The notes under the pieces: generated by a model | Databases searched by the model: none | What the model saw: only the letters and a program-made list of their open reading frames with translations | What the model was told of the DNA's origin: nothing | From: an uncultured Roseicyclus sp. | GTDB lineage: Bacteria > Pseudomonadota > Alphaproteobacteria > Rhodobacterales > Rhodobacteraceae | NCBI GenBank assembly: GCA_964615955.1 | Contig: CAZTUG010000003.1 | Location: 1,226 to 65,225, forward strand | Length of the DNA stretch: 64,000 nt | Direction of reading: 5' to 3' | Translations under genes and position numbers: made by a program | Shown here: positions 4,270-27,511 of the stretch, in pieces | Layout: every line of letters begins with the position of its first letter | Position numbering within the stretch: position 1 is the stretch's first letter

Positions 4270-5397
4270 ATGTCCAACTCCGAAGCCCTCACCGAGACAG
4301 ATACGCGCCACTACATGGCAGAGACCCTGCATGCTCAGGTAGTGGCAGCGCTGACGGCTTGGGGATTTGCTGACCAGCATGCCGAGGCTTCGGCCGAGGT
4401 GATGATCGAGGCCGATCTGAACGGCATAGACTCGCACGGGCTGGCAATGCTGCTTTACTACGAGGGTTTGGTGCAGGCGGAGGCTCTGAACCCTGCACCG
4501 AGAGTCTCGCTGCTACGCGAAAGCGCGGCCACCGCATTGCTGGATGGCGACGGGGGGCTCGGTCACGGTGTCTCTCTACAGGCGATGGATCTCGCCTGCG
4601 ACAAAGCGCAGGCCGTGGGTGTCGGCGCGGTGGCTGTGCGCGGGTCGGATCATTTTGGAGCGGCTGGGGTCTATGCGGCGCGGGCAGCACGGCGAGGAAT
4701 GGTCAGTCTGATCACGTCGAATGGTTTCACACGCTGCGTTGTGCCTGCCGGTGGTGCGCGGCCGATGTTTTCCACAAATCCCATTGCCTTTGGAGCGCCG
4801 ACGCGCACGAACCCGCCAATGATGTTCGATATCGCCACGTCTACGGCATCTATCGGCAAGGTCAATCTGGCCTGGCTTGCAGGCAAGGAAATCCCTTCCG
4901 GCTGGGTCGTCGATGGCAGGGGCAAACCCGTGACCGATCCGGGTCAGGCACGGGTGATCATCTATGATACCGGCGAGGGCGGGCTGACGCCCTTGGGTGG
5001 CACACCTGAAATGAGCGCGCATAAAGGCTATGGCATCTGCACCATGATCGAGGTGCTCTCAGCACTCTTGTCCGGGGCAACCGCTGCACCGCTTCAGACC
5101 AACCGCGAAGCTGGCGCAGGGGGCACTGATACAGGGCACTTCTTTCTGGCGCTGAACCCGGATGCTTTTCGCCCGCTGGCAGATTTCCACACCGACATGG
5201 ACCGGCTGATTGAAGCGCTTCGTGCTACCCCGCCTGCCGATCCGAACCGGCCTGTCATGGTGCCAGGCGATATCGAATGGCGCACCTATTCGAAGCGAAG
5301 CGAAACCGGCATTCCACTGCCCGGCCGGTTGCGTGAGGAGTTGTGTGCCCTGTGCGAGCGGGCCGGGGCTGCGTTCCTGTTGGAGGCAGGAAAATGA
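4270..5397 (+). CDS. Ldh2 family malate/L-lactate/ureidoglycolate-type dehydrogenase
   Basis: ATG at 4270, 6 nt after the dctM stop. Motifs GIDSHGL, VRGSDHFGAAG, STNPIAFGAP and HKGYG are characteristic of the Ldh_2 family. The N-terminal part of track ORF 3556.. is an alternate frame of dctM. Confidence 0.85.
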   Translation: MSNSEALTETDTRHYMAETLHAQVVAALTAWGFADQHAEASAEVMIEADLNGIDSHGLAMLLYYEGLVQAEALNPAPRVSLLRESAATALLDGDGGLGHGVSLQAMDLACDKAQAVGVGAVAVRGSDHFGAAGVYAARAARRGMVSLITSNGFTRCVVPAGGARPMFSTNPIAFGAPTRTNPPMMFDIATSTASIGKVNLAWLAGKEIPSGWVVDGRGKPVTDPGQARVIIYDTGEGGLTPLGGTPEMSAHKGYGICTMIEVLSALLSGATAAPLQTNREAGAGGTDTGHFFLALNPDAFRPLADFHTDMDRLIEALRATPPADPNRPVMVPGDIEWRTYSKRSETGIPLPGRLREELCALCERAGAAFLLEAGK

Positions 5398-8241: not shown

Positions 8242-8418
8242 CCTCGTCGATTTCGTAGAGGAGCCTTGTCGCCTACAGCGTAGCGAAGAATTGCGTTTAA
8301 CTTTCAAATGACTGTTTTGCGATGGACCCCAGCAGCCATCTACCACGGGCTGTTTACGCGTATGCTGCAGATGCAGTGCCGGGACCTCACAGATGGCTTT
8401 CTGCCCATCGCATCGGTT

Positions 8419-8781
8419 TCACACGGCTTCGCCCCACGGTCGCACCCTCGGCATCACCCCCGTCACCTCAACCTCGCGCAACATGCGAGCGGATACCAAC
8501 CCGTCGCGCACCCAATCGAGCGCCTGCCACCAGTCGTCATAACCCCGATGGGCGGCCTCGATCTGCTGCGGATGGGGTCGCAGGGTCACCGGACAGGCCG
8601 GAACCTCGACCGTGCGCCACTTGCCGCGTGAGAGCACGCGCTCGGTGCCCACGACGATGGTGGCGGCGCGCTCGCCATGCTGGTTGCGCCTGGTGTCAAC
8701 CGGGACGACGCGCGGCACCGCACCGGGCATCCAGTCCGGCGTCAGCCCAGCGCGCGCGAGTTCGGCGACACGGATCGCCAT
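8419..8781 (-). CDS. hypothetical protein or gene fragment (possibly mobile-element derived)
   Basis: Protein-like part of track ORF 8419..9027, read from its internal Met: MAIRVAELARAGLTPDW...RGKWRTVEVPACPVTL...YDDWWQALDWVRDGL. I recognise no family. The upstream part of the ORF is antisense to the integrase remnant. Confidence 0.25.
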   Translation of the reverse strand: MAIRVAELARAGLTPDWMPGAVPRVVPVDTRRNQHGERAATIVVGTERVLSRGKWRTVEVPACPVTLRPHPQQIEAAHRGYDDWWQALDWVRDGLVSARMLREVEVTGVMPRVRPWGEAV

Positions 8782-9141: not shown

Positions 9142-10302
9142 CTATTTCAAACGTTGCTCAAAAAACTCATCTTCGAGCCCTTCATATTTTTTGTCCAATA
9201 GCGGAGCCACGAAGCGCCACGGGACGAAGACTTCGTGCGAGCCAAAAGCGTAGGGCAGAACTCCATAGGGACTGAAATTCATCGTCAGGCCTCGGTCGTC
9301 GAAACTGAATTGCGAGGCGAGGCCCCAAGTGTGTTTCCGATCCTCAAATGAGTGCGTGATGAAGTCCTCTAGACCTTCGCCATCGAACATCGCGAGAAGG
9401 ACTTTCTTGCAATACTCAAGTAGCCGAAAGGCATTGTCTGCATCATGCCCTAGCAGATCATTGATTGAGCAAAGGCCATAGTCGGGCCCGAGAAAGTTAA
9501 GCGTAGTAACCCCATGGTTTGGGTGCGCGCCGCCCGAGTACCAATATACGGAAGACCGAACCGACAGAAACTCCCCACGCCGAAAAAATTCCTGCATGTT
9601 TAAACCCCACTCATGTGGTGCGTTGTATTCTACGGCCCGTTCTTTTTCTTGCTCGTCCATTAGCTTGAATTCGGCAACCGCACCAACAAACCCGCCCAGT
9701 GCTTCAGTAGTCAGACGTGCGTTGACAAAATCCCAGTAGACGTTGCCACCAGGGTACTGAAGGTAATCAGCGGAGACCAGAAAGTGCTCCGTTGATACAG
9801 ACGATTCGACATGCGAGGGCCGCGCCTCACCACTAGCGTCACGCGGGTCTTCCTTCACCGTCGTCGTTCTTTCGGGAGCAATCCGAAGGACGGTGCCGCC
9901 AAGTTGTCTTAAACGCTTCGTGACGGCATGCGCGAGTTGGTCGCGCCATGCCTCCTGGAAGTGGTCGATGTATTGAAATCGGATCAGCTCAACCGGCATC
10001 CGCAGGTCGTCAAGGCGAATAAAAACGACGTATGTCGCGCCAATCGGTTGGTCGTCGACGAGTTTAAGTGTCTGCTTGATTTCACGGTTCACGACGCCCG
10101 GCCGCGAAAATACCTCGGTAGATATCAAGTGGACAACGAAATCGGCATCTTGCTGTGCGGTGGCTCTTTCACGGTCCCAATCGTCGCCACCGGTCAGAGA
10201 TTCTTTGTCGAACCAGACGTTGTCATTGAGGGTTCTCAGAAAGCCACAAACCTCTTTAGCCGCCTCAAGACGTTCCGATGGATATCCCAAGAATATTTTC
10301 AC
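9142..10302 (-). CDS. TIR domain - DUF4163/DUF3298-like domain fusion protein
   Basis: The N-terminus VKIFLGYPSERLEAAKEVCGFLRTLNDNVWFDKESLTGGDDWDRERATAQQDADFVVHLISTEVFSRPGVVNREIKQ fits the bacterial TIR_2 pattern (F.SY, VW.D, G..W, conserved E). The C-terminus has the DUF3298 hallmark YWYSGGAHPNHG and LNF..G. No signal peptide or TM segment. Probable GTG start at 10302 (AAGGG 7 nt upstream); the track ORF extends to a TTG at 10380. Low GC. Confidence 0.8.
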   Translation of the reverse strand: MKIFLGYPSERLEAAKEVCGFLRTLNDNVWFDKESLTGGDDWDRERATAQQDADFVVHLISTEVFSRPGVVNREIKQTLKLVDDQPIGATYVVFIRLDDLRMPVELIRFQYIDHFQEAWRDQLAHAVTKRLRQLGGTVLRIAPERTTTVKEDPRDASGEARPSHVESSVSTEHFLVSADYLQYPGGNVYWDFVNARLTTEALGGFVGAVAEFKLMDEQEKERAVEYNAPHEWGLNMQEFFRRGEFLSVRSSVYWYSGGAHPNHGVTTLNFLGPDYGLCSINDLLGHDADNAFRLLEYCKKVLLAMFDGEGLEDFITHSFEDRKHTWGLASQFSFDDRGLTMNFSPYGVLPYAFGSHEVFVPWRFVAPLLDKKYEGLEDEFFEQRLK

Positions 10303-19525: not shown

Positions 19526-20457
19526 CCCGGGCACAGATCCTTCATTTCCTGCAGACCTACGCGGTTCTGATCCTGATCGGCCTGCTCATCGTCGTGCTCA
19601 GCCTGTCGTCTGAGAACTTTCTGACGACGCGCAACCTGCTCAACATTCTCAACCAGAACGCACCGCTCGCGATCATGGCTTCGGCGATGACGCTGGTGAT
19701 CATCGTCGGCGGTTTCGACCTGTCGGTCGGGGCGATCTTCGCCGTGGGGTCGGTCACGGCGGCCTGGCTTGCGGTGAATGTCGATCCCTATCTCGGGTTG
19801 CTTCTGGGGCCCTGCGTGGGCCTCCTGTTCGGGATCGCCAACGGCGTCGTCATCACCGCGCTCAAGGTGCATTCGTTTCTCGCGACCATCGCGACGGCCC
19901 TCATCTTCAAGGGTATCGCCATCGCTGTCTCCGACGGGCGGCTGATTTCGGTGCGGATCGACGCGTTCATTTGGCTGGGTCGCGGCACCTTTCTCGGCGT
20001 ATTCAACTCGATCTGGGTCATGATCGGTTTCGCGGTGATCCTGACCTTCCTGTTGACGCAGACCACCTTCGGTCGGCGGGTCTTTTCGGTCGGCGGAAAC
20101 GAACAGGCGGCGATCCTGTCGGGAATCCGCACCGACCGCATCAAGATCGCGGCCTTCGCCATTGCAGGGTTCGCCGCCGGGCTCGCCTCCATCATCACCA
20201 CCTCGCGCGTTGCATTGGGGCAGGCGACCGCCGGCGAGGGGATGGAGCTTCAGGCCATCGCCGCCGTCATCCTTGGCGGCACCAGCATCTATGGCGGCCA
20301 GGGAGCGGTCTGGCGCTCGCTTGCCGGTGTGTTCCTGCTGGCGCTGGTCAACAACGGCTTCAACATTCTCAACATCGATCCGTTCTTCCGCGATCTGACC
20401 ATGGGTCTGATCATTCTTGCTGCAGTGGGGATCTCGGCAATGGGTGCGCGCCGCTGA
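19522..20457 (+). CDS. ABC transporter permease (RbsC/branched-sugar type)
   Basis: 311-aa polytopic protein. The motifs GGFDLSVGAI and VLGGTSIYGGQG are typical of RbsC-like permeases. Confidence 0.9.
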   Translation: MTRAQILHFLQTYAVLILIGLLIVVLSLSSENFLTTRNLLNILNQNAPLAIMASAMTLVIIVGGFDLSVGAIFAVGSVTAAWLAVNVDPYLGLLLGPCVGLLFGIANGVVITALKVHSFLATIATALIFKGIAIAVSDGRLISVRIDAFIWLGRGTFLGVFNSIWVMIGFAVILTFLLTQTTFGRRVFSVGGNEQAAILSGIRTDRIKIAAFAIAGFAAGLASIITTSRVALGQATAGEGMELQAIAAVILGGTSIYGGQGAVWRSLAGVFLLALVNNGFNILNIDPFFRDLTMGLIILAAVGISAMGARR

Positions 20458-20508
20458 TCGGGATATCAACACGCATCAGGAACAAGGTTGGGGGAAGAGG
20501 GACGACAG

Positions 20509-20720
20509 ATCACCACGACGGATCGCGAGTGCGTCTTCGCCCGGCACACCGGCATCGGCGGCCTGCAATTTCTGGATCCAGCCCCCCAAGACGCCGGACC
20601 CGGCGAGGTGCGCCTCAGGGTCGAGGCCTTCGCGCTCAACCGGGACGACATGGGTCGCATGCCGGGGCGCTATTCGGTCAACTTCGGCACCTTGCCCGCC
20701 CGTCTTGAACGCGCTGCCTC
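20509..20720 (+). pseudogene. zinc-type alcohol dehydrogenase/quinone oxidoreductase (MDR) N-terminal fragment
   Basis: ..RECVFARHTGIGGLQFLDPAPQDAGPGEVRLRVEAFALNRDDM.. matches the GroES-like N-terminus of MDR quinone reductases. Similarity is lost after about 70 aa, and no Rossmann domain is seen in any frame up to 21005. Confidence 0.4.
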
Positions 20721-20824
20721 CACCGGTCCCGCCGCGGAGGATCTTGCATTTGGGCCTCCCGCGCGCCGGGATCGCCCGCTGCGCCCTCCCGCACCCAACA
20801 ATCAATGAGATCTTCTCGCGTGAG

Positions 20825-20891
20825 CCCCCCCCCGACCGGAGCCCTCTTGCGTTCCGCACCCGCGCCCCGCGCACGCACCGCCCCCCCCCCC
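20825..20891. repeat. two homopolymeric C tracts (C9 at 20825-20833; C11 at 20881-20891)
   Basis: Counted directly in the sequence. They lie in non-coding or decayed DNA between convergent genes. Confidence 0.9.
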
Positions 20892-21005
20892 GGCACCGCC
20901 GCGCGAGACCACGGCGTCTCGCGCATCGCGATTCTCGGCGATGTCGGATCTCTGCCTGGCGCCGCCAAGCATCGGACCATGCTGCGATCGACATTCGTGA
21001 CGGTG

Positions 21006-22472
21006 TCAATTGCGCAAGGATCCACGATCATCCGTTTCGGGTTCTGCCGTTGCCACGCCCCAGACCGCCACGTTCAGCGGCAACACCCAGTCATCCGACC
21101 TTGCATATGCCAGATCGACGGCCGTGAGGTCGACCTCCGGGTCGACAAACAACTGTTCCGGGCGACCGTTCAGGGATTTCCAGATCTCGGCGCGAACCTC
21201 CACATCGCCATGGCCTGCATTGCGCCAGACCTCCTCCAGATGGGCTGCGAACTGGTGGATCATGTCCGAGCGGACCAGCATCTTGCCGGCCTGCCGCGCG
21301 GACAGGTATTCGGTCGGATCGACCGCCCAGACCTGATCGCCGGAAACCACGTAGAACACACCTTCGGCGCGGCGATCGTAGATCCGCATCCGCCACGAAA
21401 ACCGGTGGCCGTCGCCGCTCCAGCGAACCTCGGTCGGGAAGACGGCGGCGCGCAGCGGCAGCGCCACCTGCACACAGACCCAGCCGACCATGGCGACAAG
21501 GGCCGCCATCGGGATCAGACGGACCGGGCAAGACGCTTGCGTCACCGTGGTTGCGGGAAGCGCGGAGAGATCCTCCACCCGGCCATGCAGCCAGCGCGCG
21601 ACCCCGCGCGGCCAGTCGGGCGCAAAGAAGATCGTCGTCGCGGCGATGGTCAGCCATGGAAAGATGCCGATGTTGAAGAAGGCTGCGTTGGCGCTGTGGA
21701 AACAGCAATAGACAAGGAAGGTTGCCAGCCGCGTCCGCCGCCAGAGCAGAAGCGGTGCGCCAAGGACGTGCAGGGCGACGGTGGCCCACGCTCCCGCGAT
21801 GATGACCCAGTCGAACTGGAACAGGACTCCGAAGGGGAAATCCCCCGCCAGCGGTCGAAGCCAGAGCCCAAGCGGTTCGCCCGCCAGCCAGTCGGGCGTC
21901 AGTTTCACGAGGCCCGCGAAGATCAGCATGATCTCCATCTGCGTCCTGAGGATCGCGACCGACGCATAAGGCACCGATGTGCCGCGCACCCGGGAAAACA
22001 GCCATGCATCCAGTGACAAGGCCCTGTGCGCCGGCAGGAAGCACATCAGGATCAGGAACAGGATGACGAGGTAGAAGTGGTTGAGGTATTCCGCCTTGTC
22101 GAGCAGGAAGAAGTAGCTGAACAGCACCGTCAACACGACGATCGAGACGCGGTAGAACAGCCCCAGCATCACCAGCGCCGCCGAAAGGCCGACCAGCAGC
22201 CAGGCAACATGGATCCATGGCTCGGGAAGGGGCGTGACCCAGCCGAAACCGGCATAGGTGAAGTGGAACTCCGGCTCGACCCAGTAGCGATAGACACGGT
22301 CGTGGCGGATGAAGCGCCAGCAATCCACGACCATAAGCGCGCCCAGAGCGATGCGGAAGACCGCAAGCGACAGCGGCGATACCGGTCGGGACAGCACGGC
22401 GCGCAGGCGTTGGGCTTTGCCTGGCGCATCGGTGATGCGGTCGGCGGTTCGGGGATCGGCGAAGGTCGTCAT
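21006..22472 (-). CDS. HTTM domain protein, vitamin K-dependent gamma-carboxylase-like (HTTM plus lumenal/periplasmic domain)
   Basis: ATG at 22472, with GGGAGA 7 nt upstream. LAVFRIALGALMVVDCWRFI...FHFTYAGFGWV...LDKAEYLNHFYLVILFLILMCFLP is the HTTM signature. The C-terminal ~200 aa contain WSGDGHRFSWRMRIYDR, as in the VKGC lumenal domain. Confidence 0.85.
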   Translation of the reverse strand: MTTFADPRTADRITDAPGKAQRLRAVLSRPVSPLSLAVFRIALGALMVVDCWRFIRHDRVYRYWVEPEFHFTYAGFGWVTPLPEPWIHVAWLLVGLSAALVMLGLFYRVSIVVLTVLFSYFFLLDKAEYLNHFYLVILFLILMCFLPAHRALSLDAWLFSRVRGTSVPYASVAILRTQMEIMLIFAGLVKLTPDWLAGEPLGLWLRPLAGDFPFGVLFQFDWVIIAGAWATVALHVLGAPLLLWRRTRLATFLVYCCFHSANAAFFNIGIFPWLTIAATTIFFAPDWPRGVARWLHGRVEDLSALPATTVTQASCPVRLIPMAALVAMVGWVCVQVALPLRAAVFPTEVRWSGDGHRFSWRMRIYDRRAEGVFYVVSGDQVWAVDPTEYLSARQAGKMLVRSDMIHQFAAHLEEVWRNAGHGDVEVRAEIWKSLNGRPEQLFVDPEVDLTAVDLAYARSDDWVLPLNVAVWGVATAEPETDDRGSLRN

Positions 22473-22501
22473 GGCATGTCTCCCGTTTTCGGATCTCACG
22501 G

Positions 22502-22527
22502 GGAATTACGCGCCAGGTCGCGCGTTA
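22502..22527 (+). promoter_or_regulatory. ECF-type promoter candidate GGAAT-N16-CGTTA(ATCC) upstream of the DCC/poly-Asp operon
   Basis: -35 GGAAT at 22502-22506, a 16-nt spacer, and -10 CGTTA at 22523-22527. It is embedded in the imperfect palindrome GGAATTACGCGC-N6-GCGCGTTAATCC, so the opposite strand reads GGATT-N16-CGTAA towards the HTTM gene. Nearly the same motif occurs at 25635-25663. Confidence 0.45.
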
Positions 22528-22562
22528 ATCCCCCAGACATGTTGAAAATCTGGAGTCCGTTG

Positions 22563-22976
22563 ATGTCTGATCAGGCCCTGACGATCATTTACGATGGCCA
22601 ATGCCCATTCTGCGCTTCCTATGTCGCCATGGTGCAATTGAAAAAGACTGTGGGGCAAGTGGTGCTGGTCGATGCCAGAAGCGACGATCCGCGCGTGACC
22701 GCTTCGGTCGAGGCGGGCCACGACCTCGACCGCGGCATGGTGGTGCTGTGGCATGACGAGACATTCTTCGGTGATCGGGCAGTGCACTTGCTGGCCACGC
22801 TGACCGCCGCGGATGGCGGGATCGGCAGTCGCCTGCAACGGGCGGTCTTCCGCTCGCCTCGACGCGCGGCCCGGATCTATCCCGTTCTTGCGTGGGGGCG
22901 CCGCGCCTTTCTGCGGCTGATCGGGCGGCGGCCGATTGCCGGGCACCGAAAAGAAACTTCTGCCGGACGGGAATAG
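22563..22976 (+). CDS. DCC1-like thiol-disulfide oxidoreductase family protein (DUF393)
   Basis: MSDQALTIIYDGQCPFCASYV carries the family CxxC motif. ATG at 22563 has GGAG 8 nt upstream; an alternative ATG at 22539 would sit almost on the predicted -10. The first 170 aa of track ORF 22026.. are antisense to the HTTM gene. Confidence 0.85.
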   Translation: MSDQALTIIYDGQCPFCASYVAMVQLKKTVGQVVLVDARSDDPRVTASVEAGHDLDRGMVVLWHDETFFGDRAVHLLATLTAADGGIGSRLQRAVFRSPRRAARIYPVLAWGRRAFLRLIGRRPIAGHRKETSAGRE

Positions 22977-23039
22977 CCTCGGGTCTCGCCCGTTTTATGT
23001 CCGAGGCCCGACTGGCGGGTCCGAGCGAAAGGAAACCAC

Positions 23040-23303
23040 ATGACACATATGAAAACCCTGCTTGCGGCCACTGTGGCCGTCACGGCCCTGATGTCGGCAC
23101 CCCAGCCTGCACAAGCGCAATCCGGTGACCCGTTCCTGCGGTTGCTCAATTCGATGCTTCCGAACGCGCAGATGCGTCCGTCGCGCGGCGGCTGGGACGA
23201 CGATGACGACAATGGCCGCGGCAATTGGAACGACGACGACGACGATCGCGGTGGCCGCGACGACGACGACGATGACGGTCGTGGCAATGATGACGACGAC
23301 TGA
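23040..23303 (+). CDS. small secreted poly-Asp repeat protein
   Basis: 87 aa with RBS AAGGA. Signal peptide MTHMKTLLAATVAVTALMSAPQPAQA, then a tail WDDDDDNGRGNWNDDDDDRGGRDDDDDDGRGNDDDD. Same strand as the DCC gene and 63 nt downstream of it. Confidence 0.7.
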   Translation: MTHMKTLLAATVAVTALMSAPQPAQAQSGDPFLRLLNSMLPNAQMRPSRGGWDDDDDNGRGNWNDDDDDRGGRDDDDDDGRGNDDDD

Positions 23304-23351
23304 GCTGTCGGCACCGACTTCCCAGACTTCAACCAGCGACAGGTTCCCAAT

Positions 23352-23759
23352 ATGAAACCCATTTATCTTCTGCTTCCTGCCAGCGTCACGGCGCTGATGC
23401 TGCTCTCCACCTCGATCCACGCGCAAGCCGTGCGGTTCTCGGACGTGGACACCGACGGCAATGGCCGTCTGTCCTATTCCGAGCTGCAAGCCGCCTTCGG
23501 AACCAGCGCCGCCGATCGGATCTGGACGCGCAACAATGGCACCGAGATCAGCCGCGACGACATTCGCGCCATCAACGGAGCCGATGACGACGATGACGAC
23601 GGACGTGGTCTTGACGATGACGACGATGACGACGGACGCGATGACGACGACGATGACGGCGGCCGCGATGACGACGACGATGACGGCGGCCGCGATGACG
23701 ACGACGATGACGGCGGCAACGACGACGACGATGACGGCGGCAACGACGACGATGATTGA
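23352..23759 (+). CDS. secreted EF-hand plus poly-Asp repeat protein
   Basis: 135 aa with signal peptide MKPIYLLLPASVTALMLLSTSIHA. Canonical 12-residue EF loop DTDGNGRLSYSE (about 23448-23483). C-terminal tail ADDDDDDGRGLDDDDDDDGRDDDDDDGGRDDDDDDGGRDDDDDDGGNDDDDDGGNDDDD, encoded by a 27-bp tandem DNA repeat. Confidence 0.75.
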   Translation: MKPIYLLLPASVTALMLLSTSIHAQAVRFSDVDTDGNGRLSYSELQAAFGTSAADRIWTRNNGTEISRDDIRAINGADDDDDDGRGLDDDDDDDGRDDDDDDGGRDDDDDDGGRDDDDDDGGNDDDDDGGNDDDD

Positions 23760-23815
23760 TGCCGAAAGACCGTCATTTTCCTGAATGACCCCGACCGGGA
23801 CGTCCCATCCCCCCG

Positions 23816-23845
23816 CCCCGCACCGCCCCGTGCGGGGCGGTTTTC
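23816..23845 (+). terminator. rho-independent terminator of the DCC/poly-Asp operon
   Basis: CCCCGCAC-cgcccc-GTGCGGGG (8-bp GC stem) followed by CGGTTTTCGTT, 57 nt after the stop at 23759. Confidence 0.6.
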
Positions 23846-24286
23846 GTTCTGGTCTGGCGCAAACCGGCGATGGCCGCACGCTATCCCGCCTTCCCGGCTT
23901 GGGGACATGGCCGGATCGGCAGACTGGCCCAGGTGCATCAATGACCCATTTTGACAGTGGATAACGGCAGGTTCCACGTTCCCGGATCGGGCTTGCGCAG
24001 CCCCGGGGCCGCCTTGATCGCTCAACCAGCCGGGCGCTCGCGTGCCGGCGCAACCGACACGATCCAGCCCCGGGCAGAGGGTTGCGGTCGCTCGCTGGCC
24101 GTCACCCATGACCCAGGACGCACCCTGCCAGCATCCGATGCACGTGACTGGGGCTGGGGGCTGGGGACCGGGGCCGTGGACCCTGGCGCACGTCGCGCGA
24201 AAGTGGGTGCCGGTCTTGCGCATCTCGGACGCGCGCGATCAAAAGGGTGGCGTGGCTCGCGTGACCGCGGAAGAACGCGGCACGCC

Positions 24287-25069
24287 CTAACCGCCGAGAG
24301 CCGACAGGCGCGCGGCTTCTTCCTCGGGCGAAAGGGTGGGCCCGGCGCCAATGGCGTCGAGGTAGGTATCCAGCGTCTCAAGGGAAGAGGCCGGGGCATA
24401 GCCCGTGTCATCCAAACCCGACGACACCAGGGCAAAGCGGGTGCGCCATCCCCCTGCCTCGTGGCACACCACCGATACCGAGGTGCCGCTGTCAGGTGCG
24501 TCATATTCGAATTCGCGGCAGAACAGGCCGTCTCTGGTCAGGAACGACGCAATGATCGCCACCTCGCCAGGCCCTGCCGCCCCCCTCTCGCCTGCGGCCA
24601 ACCGGCCCAGGGCGTCTTCGATCCCCGGCGAGTCGAGCAGCGCAAGGCCAGGCCCGTTCCCCGTGTCGGGCCGGATCGCAAGGCTCGCGATGACCCCGCC
24701 GACCGCGCCGACCAGCAATGCGGCGCTGGCGGCAAGAGCCAGCGTGACGCGTGGGCGGGGCGGTGCCGCGGACACGGGAAAAGGCACCACCCGATCGGAG
24801 CCCGCTTCGGGCGCAGCGGTGGCGGGCGCGCCACGGGCGGCGGCCAATGTCGCCTCGACCCGCGCGGCAAGATCGCCCGGGACAGGCGCCTCGGGACGGG
24901 CAGCCCCAAGCGATCCCAAAAGGTCGCCGGTCTGCCGGAACATGGCGATCCGCGCCGCCAACGCGTCATCGGCGGCCTCTGCTTCGGCCACGCGCTGCGC
25001 CGCCGCGCGGTCGAGCTCCCCGTCGGCATAGGCCATCAGTGTTTCGTCGTCGAAATCGGTCGGGTTCAT
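24287..25069 (-). CDS. anti-sigma factor (single-pass membrane protein)
   Basis: 260 aa. N-terminus FDDETLMAYADGELDRAAAQRV is the typical anti-sigma N-terminal helix. TM segment VTLALAASAALLVGAVGGVIASLAI plus a ~120-aa periplasmic domain. Lies immediately downstream of the ECF sigma gene. Confidence 0.75.
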   Translation of the reverse strand: MNPTDFDDETLMAYADGELDRAAAQRVAEAEAADDALAARIAMFRQTGDLLGSLGAARPEAPVPGDLAARVEATLAAARGAPATAAPEAGSDRVVPFPVSAAPPRPRVTLALAASAALLVGAVGGVIASLAIRPDTGNGPGLALLDSPGIEDALGRLAAGERGAAGPGEVAIIASFLTRDGLFCREFEYDAPDSGTSVSVVCHEAGGWRTRFALVSSGLDDTGYAPASSLETLDTYLDAIGAGPTLSPEEEAARLSALGG

Positions 25070-25111
25070 TGCGTGTCACTCCTTGCCCCTCACGGATTAA
25101 CGCATGACGGA

Positions 25112-25603
25112 TCAGGTTATTCCCAGTTTTTCCGCCAGCGCCACACGGCCGCGCGCGAGGCGGCTCATCACGGTGCCCTTCGGGATACCGAGGATCTCGG
25201 CGGTTTCGGCGTAAGACATCTCCTCGAAACAGACGAGGGCGATGATCTCTTGATGTTCCGGGGCCAGCGTGGCCAGTGCGGCCTCGGTCTTCTGCAGCAT
25301 CAGGGTGCTTTCGGTCACGCGCGGACCATCGACCATCGCTGCTTCGGGCACATCGAAGATATCCACCTCCGTGCCGCGCGTCGCGAAGCGGCGGGTCTGG
25401 TCGATCCACGCATTGCGCAGGATGCGGAACAGCCAGGGATCCAGCCGGGTCTCGGGATCGAAGCGGTCACGCGCCACGATCGCCTTCTCGACGGTGATCT
25501 GCACCAGGTCGTCGGCGATGTCGCCCCGACGGCACAGCGACAATGCGAAACGGCGAAGCTTCGGCAGCGCCGCCACCAGATCCCGTTCGAATGCATCCCT
25601 CAT
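25112..25603 (-). CDS. RNA polymerase ECF sigma factor (sigma-70 family, group 4)
   Basis: 163 aa from ATG 25603. Region 2 DIADDLVQITVEKAI...DPWLFRILRNAWID and region 4 SYAETAEILGIPKGTVMSRLARGR. Track ORF 25112..26170 is over-extended (antisense to the S8 gene). Confidence 0.9.
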   Translation of the reverse strand: MRDAFERDLVAALPKLRRFALSLCRRGDIADDLVQITVEKAIVARDRFDPETRLDPWLFRILRNAWIDQTRRFATRGTEVDIFDVPEAAMVDGPRVTESTLMLQKTEAALATLAPEHQEIIALVCFEEMSYAETAEILGIPKGTVMSRLARGRVALAEKLGIT

Positions 25604-25634
25604 TTCCTGCGCCGACCCTTGCCGCGCAGGGCGC

Positions 25635-25660
25635 GGAATAAACCTTTGGTGCAGACGTAA
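25635..25660 (+). promoter_or_regulatory. ECF-type promoter candidate GGAAT-N16-CGTAA(TCC) upstream of the S8 peptidase gene
   Basis: -35 GGAAT at 25635-25639, a 16-nt spacer, and -10 CGTAA at 25656-25660, about 29 nt before the ATG at 25689. Same architecture and flanking ATCC as the motif at 22502-22531. Confidence 0.45.
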
Positions 25661-25688
25661 TCCTTTTGACCATGTTAAACCAGAAGAG

Positions 25689-27071
25689 ATGACCGCGATG
25701 ATGCACCGCCTCTTGTTGATCGTTCCCCTTGCCGCGCTGTTCGTGATCGGACTTTCGGCGGTTCCGTCTTTCGTTGCGGACGGTCGGATGGCCTCGATGG
25801 CGTTTGCCGACGACGACGACGATGGCGGCGGCAACGACGACGATGACGGCGGTGGCGGTGGTGGCGCGGCCGGGGCAACCGACGACGATGAAGGGCGGTT
25901 TCCCGTGTTCGGGAACCGTCCGCGCACGCCGCAGGCTGGCCCAGCCGGCCCGCAGGCACCCGATTTCGCCCCGGACGAGATCGTGACCCTTGCGCTGACC
26001 GAGGCGGATCTTGCCGTGCTTGTGGGGCAGGGCTTCACCGTGCTGGATGAACAGGCGCTGGAAGCGTTAGATACCACGTCCCGCCGTTTGCGCATCCCCA
26101 ACGACCTGACGCTGGACGAGGCACGCGAAGCCGCCCGCGGTGTTCCCAGCGGGCAGGACGCCGACTTCAACCACTATTATCGCTCCGAACAGGCGTTTTC
26201 GTCGAGTTGCCGAGGCGTCGACTGCCCGGCGCGCATCCTTGTGGACTGGCCACTGGACCTGTCGCGCGACGGTGGCTGCGGCAACGGCGTCCGGATCGGG
26301 ATGATCGACACCGGCATCAATGCCGCGCACACCACCTTCACGGGTGCCGATCTGGAGGTGCTGCGGCTGGGCGATGAAGCCTTGCCCGAATCCGGTGCCT
26401 TGCACGGAACCGCCGTCGCGGCTCTTCTGGTGGGCGACCCGGGCTCCCGTTCGCCCGGCCTCGTTCCCGGGGCCAGCCTGATCGCCGTCGATGCCTTCCA
26501 CAGTTCGGGCGGTGACGAACGCACCGATGTCTTCACCTTGCTGTCGGGCCTCGACCATCTGGCGGAGGCCAGGGTGTCGATCATCAACCTGAGCCTCGCC
26601 GGACCGCCCAATGCCGTGCTGGAACGCGCCGTGACGCAGCTGGTGGAAGCCGAGGATATCGTCCTTGTCGCAGCCGTGGGCAATGACGGGCCCGCTGCCG
26701 ATCCGGCCTATCCGGCGGCCTATGCGTCCGTTATCGCCGTGACGGCGGTGGACCGCGACGGCGTGGTCTACCGCCGCGCGATCACCGGCTCGCATGTGGA
26801 TATTGCCGCGCCCGGGGTCGATGTCTGGACCGCCGCCTCGATCAGCGGCGCCCGCCCGAAGACCGGCACGTCCTACGCGGTGCCCTTCGTGACGGCGGCG
26901 GCGGCCATCTTGCGCGATACCCGCCCGGAACTGCGCGCCGCCGAAGTCGCGGCGGCCTTGCAGGCGCTGGCCCGCGATATCGGGGATCCCGGCCCGGACA
27001 ATGTCTATGGCGCGGGGCTGGTGCAATTCGATCCGGTCTGCAGCGACCGGCCCCTGATCCTTCCGGACTGA
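25689..27071 (+). CDS. S8 family serine peptidase (subtilase) with N-terminal signal/anchor and poly-Asp/Gly tract
   Basis: ATG at 25689, in frame with track ORF 25269... Hydrophobic N-terminus MHRLLLIVPLAALFVIGLSAV, then ADDDDDGGGNDDDDGGGGGG. Catalytic triad contexts GMIDTGI (Asp), HGTAVAALL (His) and GTSYAVPFVTAAAA (Ser). Confidence 0.9.
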   Translation: MTAMMHRLLLIVPLAALFVIGLSAVPSFVADGRMASMAFADDDDDGGGNDDDDGGGGGGAAGATDDDEGRFPVFGNRPRTPQAGPAGPQAPDFAPDEIVTLALTEADLAVLVGQGFTVLDEQALEALDTTSRRLRIPNDLTLDEAREAARGVPSGQDADFNHYYRSEQAFSSSCRGVDCPARILVDWPLDLSRDGGCGNGVRIGMIDTGINAAHTTFTGADLEVLRLGDEALPESGALHGTAVAALLVGDPGSRSPGLVPGASLIAVDAFHSSGGDERTDVFTLLSGLDHLAEARVSIINLSLAGPPNAVLERAVTQLVEAEDIVLVAAVGNDGPAADPAYPAAYASVIAVTAVDRDGVVYRRAITGSHVDIAAPGVDVWTAASISGARPKTGTSYAVPFVTAAAAILRDTRPELRAAEVAAALQALARDIGDPGPDNVYGAGLVQFDPVCSDRPLILPD

Positions 27072-27163
27072 AATGGTCCGCCGCCTTGCGGGCGACAGGG
27101 CGCCCGTCATTCATCGAGGGATCATCCCGCCGGTCGCGCGTCCGCCCGCAAGGTCTGTCCGCT

Positions 27164-27511
27164 TCAGCCTGCGCAGTCCCGACACCGGATCAACGTGGGA
27201 TCGAGCTCAAGCCGCTGCTGCCCGATAAATTCGCCGCACTCCTCGCACCAGCCGAATTCACCCGAGTCCATCCGCCGGACGGCGGCCTCAAGCGCCCTGA
27301 TCCGTCCAAGCCGCCGCGTTTGCTGGGCGGCGGCCATGGCCTGTTGTTGCATCGCATCCATTCGGCTGAGCCGGCCGACGCTCTGCTGGTCAAGCTCCAC
27401 GGGCCGACGGTCTGCCGATGTCTGCACGGAGGCCGTGCGCAGGCTCTGCAACTCGTCGCGAAGCCGCGGCAGGAACGTGGTCTTCAAGTGCGCGGGGCCG
27501 CGGTCCGTCAT
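27164..27511 (-). CDS. TraR/DksA family C4-type zinc-finger protein
   Basis: 115 aa. Coiled N-terminal part and C-terminus CEECGEFIGQQRLELDPTLIRCRDC (CxxC-N17-CxxC). Lies 3 nt downstream of the Usp gene. Confidence 0.85.
   Translation of the reverse strand: MTDRGPAHLKTTFLPRLRDELQSLRTASVQTSADRRPVELDQQSVGRLSRMDAMQQQAMAAAQQTRRLGRIRALEAAVRRMDSGEFGWCEECGEFIGQQRLELDPTLIRCRDCAG

Follow-up and report, generated by a model that had tools for sequence, protein, structure and literature searches.

The window, by which we mean the whole 64-kb stretch of DNA that was analysed, carries a cluster at positions 21006–27071 that encodes a vitamin-K-carboxylase homologue, a DCC oxidoreductase, two secreted Asp-rich proteins and a subtilase. 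The first gene (21006–22472, − strand) specifies an HTTM/vitamin-K-dependent gamma-carboxylase-like membrane protein (Pfam HTTM, 1.4e-77; VKGC_lumenal_dom, 2.1e-36) and is divergent from a gene for a DCC1-like thiol-disulfide oxidoreductase (22563–22976, + strand; PF04134, 2.9e-09). Two genes for small secreted Asp-rich proteins (the poly-Asp genes) follow on the + strand at 23040–23303 and 23352–23759; they were recognized from their translations, which are largely built of DDDDDDGGR-type repeats, and a search for Pfam matches to them returned none. An intrinsic-terminator-like hairpin at 23813–23840 (+) closes this DCC/poly-Asp unit. The − strand then carries genes for a membrane anti-sigma factor homologous to EcfR6 (24287–25069; weak NCBIfam anti-sigma match) and for an RpoE6-like ECF sigma factor (25112–25603; Pfam sigma2 and sigma4), the latter divergent from an S8 subtilase gene (25689–27071, +; Peptidase_S8, 1.9e-31) whose translation has an Asp/Gly-rich N-terminal region. 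Pfam thus agreed with the earlier note on the HTTM, DCC, ECF sigma and subtilase genes. The approximately 550 bp downstream of HTTM (20458–21005) contained no convincing reading frame, the ORFs there being flat in GC by codon position, and gave no Rfam match. Carboxylation of an aspartyl residue is the activity given for MloH, a bacterial HTTM enzyme, in a 2026 preprint (10.64898/2026.08.19.745780), so the Asp-rich secreted proteins could be substrates of the HTTM protein.

The HTTM and DCC start codons are separated by 90 bp, and a dyad-symmetric sequence is situated nearly exactly in the centre of this interval. Its core, GGGGAATTACGCGC-CAGGTC-GCGCGTTAATCCCC (22500–22533, assigned to no strand), contains two predicted promoters; the string quoted in the earlier note begins at 22500. 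In the direction of DCC, the −35 element GGAAT (22502–22506, +) is followed after 16 nt by the −10 region CGTTAATCC (22523–22531, +), and the DCC ATG lies 37 nt after the CGT. On the opposite strand, GGATT (22531–22527, −) is followed after 16 nt by CGTAATTCC, which reads from 22510 downwards and includes the −10 element CGTAA (22506–22510, −), and the HTTM ATG lies 35 nt after this CGT. Between the two CGT elements of the dyad (22508–22510 on the − strand and 22523–22525 on the + strand) there is a gap of 12 bp, without any overlap. Thus, GGAAT-N16-CGTTA facing DCC is present at 22502–22531 (+) as had been claimed, and so is the imperfect palindrome that presents GGATT-N16-CGTAA to HTTM. An inverted-repeat search carried out independently also reported the element, with arms at 22493–22513 and 22520–22540 that are 76% complementary.

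Seventy one-directional sites from other genomes served to construct a position matrix, with which we scanned both strands of the whole window. Five matches scored at least 17.4, all of which face genes of the cluster, whereas the next best match scored 10.4. The two readings of the dyad were both among these five, with scores of 18.4 for the DCC-facing promoter and 17.4, the fifth rank in the window, for the HTTM-facing promoter; nothing outside the cluster qualifies in the window. The sixth-ranked match, at 10290 (+), was within the range of the shuffled controls. Block-wise base shuffles of the window gave 0.06 matches of at least 17.4 each. Similarly, the simple pattern GGAAT-N15-17-CGTWA occurred three times against an expectation of 0.15, with the copies confined to a span of 3.2 kb.

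The top match (score 27.3) was a predicted promoter of the anti-sigma gene, GGAATAA-N15-CGTTA at 25098–25123 (−), which is kept in 24 related loci and whose −35 GGAATA is encoded within the terminal codons of the sigma reading frame (..GGA ATA ACC TGA). The predicted subtilase promoter, GGAATAA-N15-CGTAATCC at 25635–25663 (+), scored 26.0 and is kept in 23 related loci; this is the copy, GGAAT-N16-CGTAATCC, that had been described as nearly identical to the site between HTTM and DCC, and it is indeed present. A further predicted promoter, GGAATAG-N15-CGT at 22970–22993 (+; score 21.9), precedes the first poly-Asp gene by 46 nt, its −35 overlapping the DCC stop codon TAG, and 23 related loci have it in the corresponding position. 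In the window only, the spacer of this promoter is overlapped by a short hairpin with a T-run at 22980–22992. The copies at 25098–25123 and 22970–22993 were absent from the earlier note. A simple scan of 22300–25800 for sigma-70-like promoters found none.

The sigma factor is a protein of 163 aa in which Pfam recognized Sigma70_r2 and Sigma70_r4_2, that is, regions 2 and 4 only, and the best NCBIfam models scored below their cut-offs. It is 53% identical to Sinorhizobium meliloti RpoE6 over its full length, and the anti-sigma factor is 39% identical to EcfR6 and colinear with it over its full length of 260 aa, with a hydrophobic stretch at approximately residues 108–132 of its translation. RpoE6 was placed in group ECF26 with ECFfinder (Lang et al. 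2018, PMC6180224), for which that article gives the consensus −35 GGAATA and −10 (C)GT and, as a widely conserved context, a sigma gene divergent from a serine protease gene. We found both the consensus at the window sites and this gene arrangement in the window. RpoE6-dependent promoters have been mapped upstream of SMa0142 (protease), ecfR6 (inside the rpoE6 reading frame) and SMa0148, with start sites 10 nt after the CGT, where the tabulated promoter sequences end (PMC6180224). Although our matrix was built without any rhizobial sequence, it recovered these three mapped promoters as top matches on pSymA. The best matrix match on pSymA, at 8336 (+) of our locus L081, lies just past the ecfR6 stop codon and is antisense into the annotated SMa0146 homologue (8319–8708, −); it corresponds to none of the mapped promoters read from Table 1 of Lang et al.

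The likeness to the RpoE6 system (PMC6180224) extends to the −35 GGAATA, the 15-nt spacer and the −10 CGT, to the synteny of the S8 gene with the sigma and anti-sigma genes, which is the same on pSymA, and to a second anti-sigma promoter within the 3′ end of the sigma gene. In contrast, rpoE6 on pSymA is not accompanied by HTTM, DCC or poly-Asp genes, the −10 region is CGT(T/C)CT in the RpoE6 system and CGTWNTCC here, and none of the promoter sequences read from Table 1 of that article is two-way, unlike the dyad in the window.

The −35/−10 pattern and spacing of EcfG (ECF15) promoters, GGAAC-N16/17-CGTT, are very similar to those in the window, and cross-talk between RpoE6 and the EcfG-type RpoE2 has been described (Lang et al., PMC6180224). 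However, the −35 in the window is GGAAT at four of the five sites and GGATT at the fifth, and never GGAAC; the T of GGAAT(A) was invariant in all classes of site, in a scan of relatives that itself required GGAAT. In addition, the partner of the sigma factor is a 260-aa EcfR6-like membrane protein rather than a NepR/PhyR pair, and the PhyR_sigma2 Pfam match falls on the sigma factor itself. Thus, the general ECF pattern recognized in the earlier note holds, whereas its comparison with EcfG and SigW gives way to ECF26 (RpoE6-type), which fits better by the homology of both proteins as well as by consensus. The consensus, the mapped start sites and the recovery of the pSymA promoters together identify a known promoter class, and the sigma factor encoded at 25112–25603 is likely to drive the promoters of the cluster.

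Autoregulation of the sigma gene through an ECF26-type site was considered and rejected, as the sigma-facing strand has no correctly placed CGT in the window or in the relatives, with the exception of L010. The sequence at 25604–25688 (−) contained no ECF26-type match facing the sigma gene and, by the simple scan, no sigma-70-like match. The S. meliloti rpoE6 promoter has been described as RpoD/RpoH-like. In L010 (Rhodosalinus sp. 5P4) the sigma–S8 intergenic region has a dyad-symmetric form, GGAATACG-N13-CGTATTCC, at 5226–5254, which would give positive autoregulation of the sigma factor.

We next turn to conservation. Twenty HTTM homologues were aligned and 80 related genomic loci were fetched and mapped by tblastn, with seven cluster genes only as queries. 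The divergent HTTM–DCC pair was present in 69 of the 80 loci, and the sigma/anti-sigma/S8 module was linked in about 35, at times in another position or orientation. The hosts include many Rhodobacterales genera, Hyphomicrobiales (Aquamicrobium, Bosea), an Azospirillaceae genome and Rhodovastum. Scanning these loci for GGAAT-N16-CGT revealed four conserved places, all of which are occupied in the window: between HTTM and DCC, on both strands; about 28–30 nt ahead of the anti-sigma ATG, with the −35 in the last sigma codons; in front of the S8 gene; and over the DCC stop codon, where the −35 (GGAATAG) precedes the gene for an Asp-rich protein.

At the first of these places, GGAAT-N16/17-CGT was read on both strands as a single palindrome of 29–31 bp in 44 of the 69 divergent pairs (30 bp in 37 loci, 31 bp in four and 29 bp in three), with the consensus GGAAT(A/T)ACG-N12-CGTTATTCC. 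Cultured relatives whose dyad is perfect include Celeribacter persicus DSM 100434 (L008), Salipiger marinus DSM 26424 (L018) and Roseivivax isoporae LMG 25204 (L017). Five pairs had a match on one strand, and 20 had no motif. When 22 intergenic regions were aligned with MAFFT without guidance, the sole invariant blocks were the two arms and the HTTM Shine-Dalgarno sequence. The one-directional promoters provided a comparison for the symmetry. With leave-one-out matrices, a reverse-strand score of at least 15 was obtained for 32 of 36 HTTM–DCC sites and for none of the 70 one-directional sites, whose median reverse-strand scores were −13, −7 and −4 by class. The sigma–S8 intergenic region is also divergent, and its site is one-directional in every locus save L010. 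By these scores, dyad symmetry is not a by-product of the motif. These findings argue that the palindrome is a conserved element and not an incidental context, and that the predicted HTTM-facing promoter is real as well.

Presence of the motif was associated with presence of the sigma gene. The flanks of 29 divergent-pair loci contained the sigma gene, and all 29 had the motif, whereas the sigma gene was found in none of the 20 pairs without the motif (Fisher p = 1.4e-6, uncorrected for shared ancestry among loci that are not phylogenetically independent). The palindrome occurred without a sigma gene within the fetched flanks, which are the only sequence covered, in 20 loci. Together with the RpoE6/EcfR6 homology and the ECF26 consensus, this co-occurrence is consistent with the earlier suggestion of one regulon under the sigma factor of 25112–25603, on which the promoters would depend. 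Most of the more distant HTTM–DCC pairs without the sigma gene (L048, L050, L054, L055, L060, L063–L066, L069, L071 and L072) lack the palindrome, and these distant pairs have one or two copies of another conserved motif, roughly (C)CATAAACC-N5-6-TAT, in the HTTM–DCC intergenic region. Both this motif and the palindrome were present in L055 and L063. The (C)CATAAACC-N5-6-TAT motif looks like a different regulatory input.

One could argue that the site in the window is a one-directional ECF26 promoter that serves DCC and the poly-Asp genes only, with its symmetry being a relic or having some other purpose and with HTTM being transcribed from another promoter. The DCC-facing reading is a perfect GGAAT-N16-CGT, whereas the HTTM-facing −35 is GGATT in the window. 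Moreover, the right arm, CGTTAATCC, recurs unchanged as the −10 region of the anti-sigma promoter in the window and could thus be explained without a second −35. This identity arises from a base change in the window copy, in which A (A22528) replaces T in CGTTA[A]TCC, a change present in only one of the 22 aligned sequences; on the other strand it is the rare A-to-T change that converts the GGAAT of the other 21 relatives into GGATT. L028 has the mirror image of this change. The site may as a result be biased towards DCC, and the leftward promoter is perhaps weak or dead in the window, as GGATT is the sole case among the 22 aligned sequences.

The relatives speak against a promoter that fires towards DCC only. 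A perfect HTTM-facing GGAAT and CGT was found in 44 of the 69 divergent pairs, in contrast to the one-directional promoters of the same regulon, which were never two-strand, and the retention of the dyad in nearly perfect form among relatives favours a genuine promoter in the HTTM direction as well. Between the CGT that faces HTTM and the start codon of this gene there are 35 nt in the window and a median of 35 nt (IQR 33–36) in the relatives, and a Shine-Dalgarno-like sequence preceded HTTM in 41 of 48 cases; the corresponding distance to the DCC start codon is 36 nt in the relatives and 37 nt in the window. Two loci, L049 (Paracoccus salsus) and L035, have no divergent DCC, and in both HTTM retains its own one-directional GGAAT-N17-CGT, 37 and 34 nt upstream of its ATG, respectively, and in L049 the −35 of the opposite strand is degenerate (GGATG). 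Finally, the 90-bp intergenic region contains no sigma-70-like site from which HTTM might otherwise be transcribed. The fixed distance, the copies in L049 and L035 and the lack of a sigma-70-like site point to a real HTTM-facing promoter, and we consider transcription towards DCC only to be unlikely.

A palindrome between divergent genes could also be the operator of a dimeric regulator, either a repressor or an activator, in which case the likeness to the sigma motif would be secondary. The geometry of the site is compatible with such an operator: the inverted repeat is near perfect, its 12-bp centre is variable, the centres of its arms are separated by 21 bp (two helical turns), 37 of 44 loci share a total length of 30 bp, and it is central between two divergent start codons. 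However, the half-site equals precisely the −35 joined to the complement of the −10 as these elements stand in the one-directional promoters of the same loci, and its spacing is that of a promoter; the matrix that finds the dyad also finds the experimentally mapped RpoE6 promoters. Moreover, Pfam analysis of the cluster genes in the window identified the sigma/anti-sigma pair as the only regulators, and the palindrome and the sigma gene tend to occur together. We therefore regard an operator as quite improbable. The constant N16 spacing was also considered as a means of distinguishing a promoter from an operator; however, the 30-bp length (37 of 44) is at least as conserved, and sites with 8-bp arms are split between N16 and N17. 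Since the spacer statistics fit the promoter and operator models alike, this argument was dropped.

That the site has a structural role (as a DNA cruciform, RNA hairpin or terminator) or merely matches by chance and regulates nothing is hardly credible: although the dyad as single-stranded DNA folds at −11.1 kcal/mol (z = −3.5), better than 200 of 200 shuffles, its arms are invariant without compensatory changes and its centre is not kept as a stem, the flanking genes both point away from it such that no terminator is needed there, the predicted transcription starts are outside it, an Rfam scan of 20000–27500 gave no match, and only 0.06 matches per window are expected by chance.

From these comparisons we consider it probable that the 30-bp dyad at 22502–22531 serves as an ECF26 (RpoE6-type) promoter in both directions, such that one stress-type sigma factor probably turns on the HTTM gene and the neighbouring operon from a shared site. 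The data also support a regulon of five predicted promoters of the ECF26/RpoE6 type. These functional statements rest on comparative sequence analysis and on experiments in the homologous system. In the proposed mechanism, the anti-sigma factor would hold the sigma factor at the membrane until a periplasmic signal frees it. RNA polymerase holoenzyme containing the sigma factor of 25112–25603 would then bind the −35 GGAAT(A) and the −10 CGT, 16 nt apart, with the orientation being chosen at each binding event. When the 10-nt offset after the CGT of S. meliloti RpoE6 promoters (PMC6180224) is applied, rightward transcription of DCC and the poly-Asp genes would start near A22535 with a 28-nt leader to the DCC ATG, whereas leftward transcription of HTTM (−35 GGATT, −10 CGT) would start at 22497–22499 with a leader of about 26 nt to the HTTM ATG.

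About 37 bp separate the two predicted starts, both of which lie outside the dyad, and each −35 is at about −8 to −4 of the opposite promoter. This placement between the −10 and the start of the other promoter suggests that the site would accommodate one polymerase at a time. The freed sigma factor would also drive the S8 gene, with the promoter at 22970 acting as a booster for the Asp-rich proteins, and would drive additional anti-sigma synthesis as negative feedback; the presence of the anti-sigma promoter within the sigma gene, matching the mapped ecfR6 promoter, implies that this feedback is sigma dependent. We infer in the same way the sigma dependence of the promoters, their start sites, the mutual exclusion and the extent of any weakening of the HTTM direction by GGATT. 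More tentatively, and with somewhat less than even confidence, we propose that the site represents a conserved class of fully dyad-symmetric ECF promoters, at which the same holoenzyme would initiate in either orientation in a mutually exclusive manner, coupling HTTM to DCC and the Asp-rich proteins, and at which single-base asymmetries would tune the left/right ratio.

Bidirectional promoters have been described for sigma-70, where they depend on the symmetry of a shared −10 element and the starts are usually 18 (also 10 or 23) bp apart (Warman, Grainger; PMC12825309; bioRxiv 10.1101/2020.01.31.928960). As in those promoters, the DNA between HTTM and DCC is pseudo-symmetric and has a promoter sequence on each strand (scores of 18.4 and 17.4; 44 of 69 relatives), polymerase is predicted to engage in either orientation to generate divergent mRNAs, and binding in one orientation should preclude binding in the other. 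Unlike those promoters, the whole ECF −35/−10 pair is dyad-symmetric here, and we found neither overlapping −10 elements nor the spacing of about 18 (10 or 23) bp between starts, which are predicted to be about 37 bp apart. Within the library searched, we found no dyad-symmetric or bidirectional ECF promoter and no link between an ECF sigma factor and HTTM or a vitamin K-dependent gamma-carboxylase, which is not proof of absence. Thus, the promoter type is known, whereas its dyad-symmetric two-way architecture looks new.

The dyad would provide a clean natural bidirectional promoter, found in several alphaproteobacterial orders, that is built on a principle other than the shared −10 symmetry of sigma-70 promoters. 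Since the −10 elements, and likewise the −35 elements, of the two directions fall on distinct bases, each direction could be removed separately, making polymerase competition at an alternative-sigma promoter directly testable. The predicted sites also define a compact regulon for a sigma factor whose counterpart in S. meliloti, RpoE6, has yet to be assigned a role. This regulon would be tied to a bacterial vitamin-K-carboxylase homologue, a DCC oxidoreductase, poly-Asp proteins and a subtilase, and overexpression of one sigma factor could turn on all of them for study.
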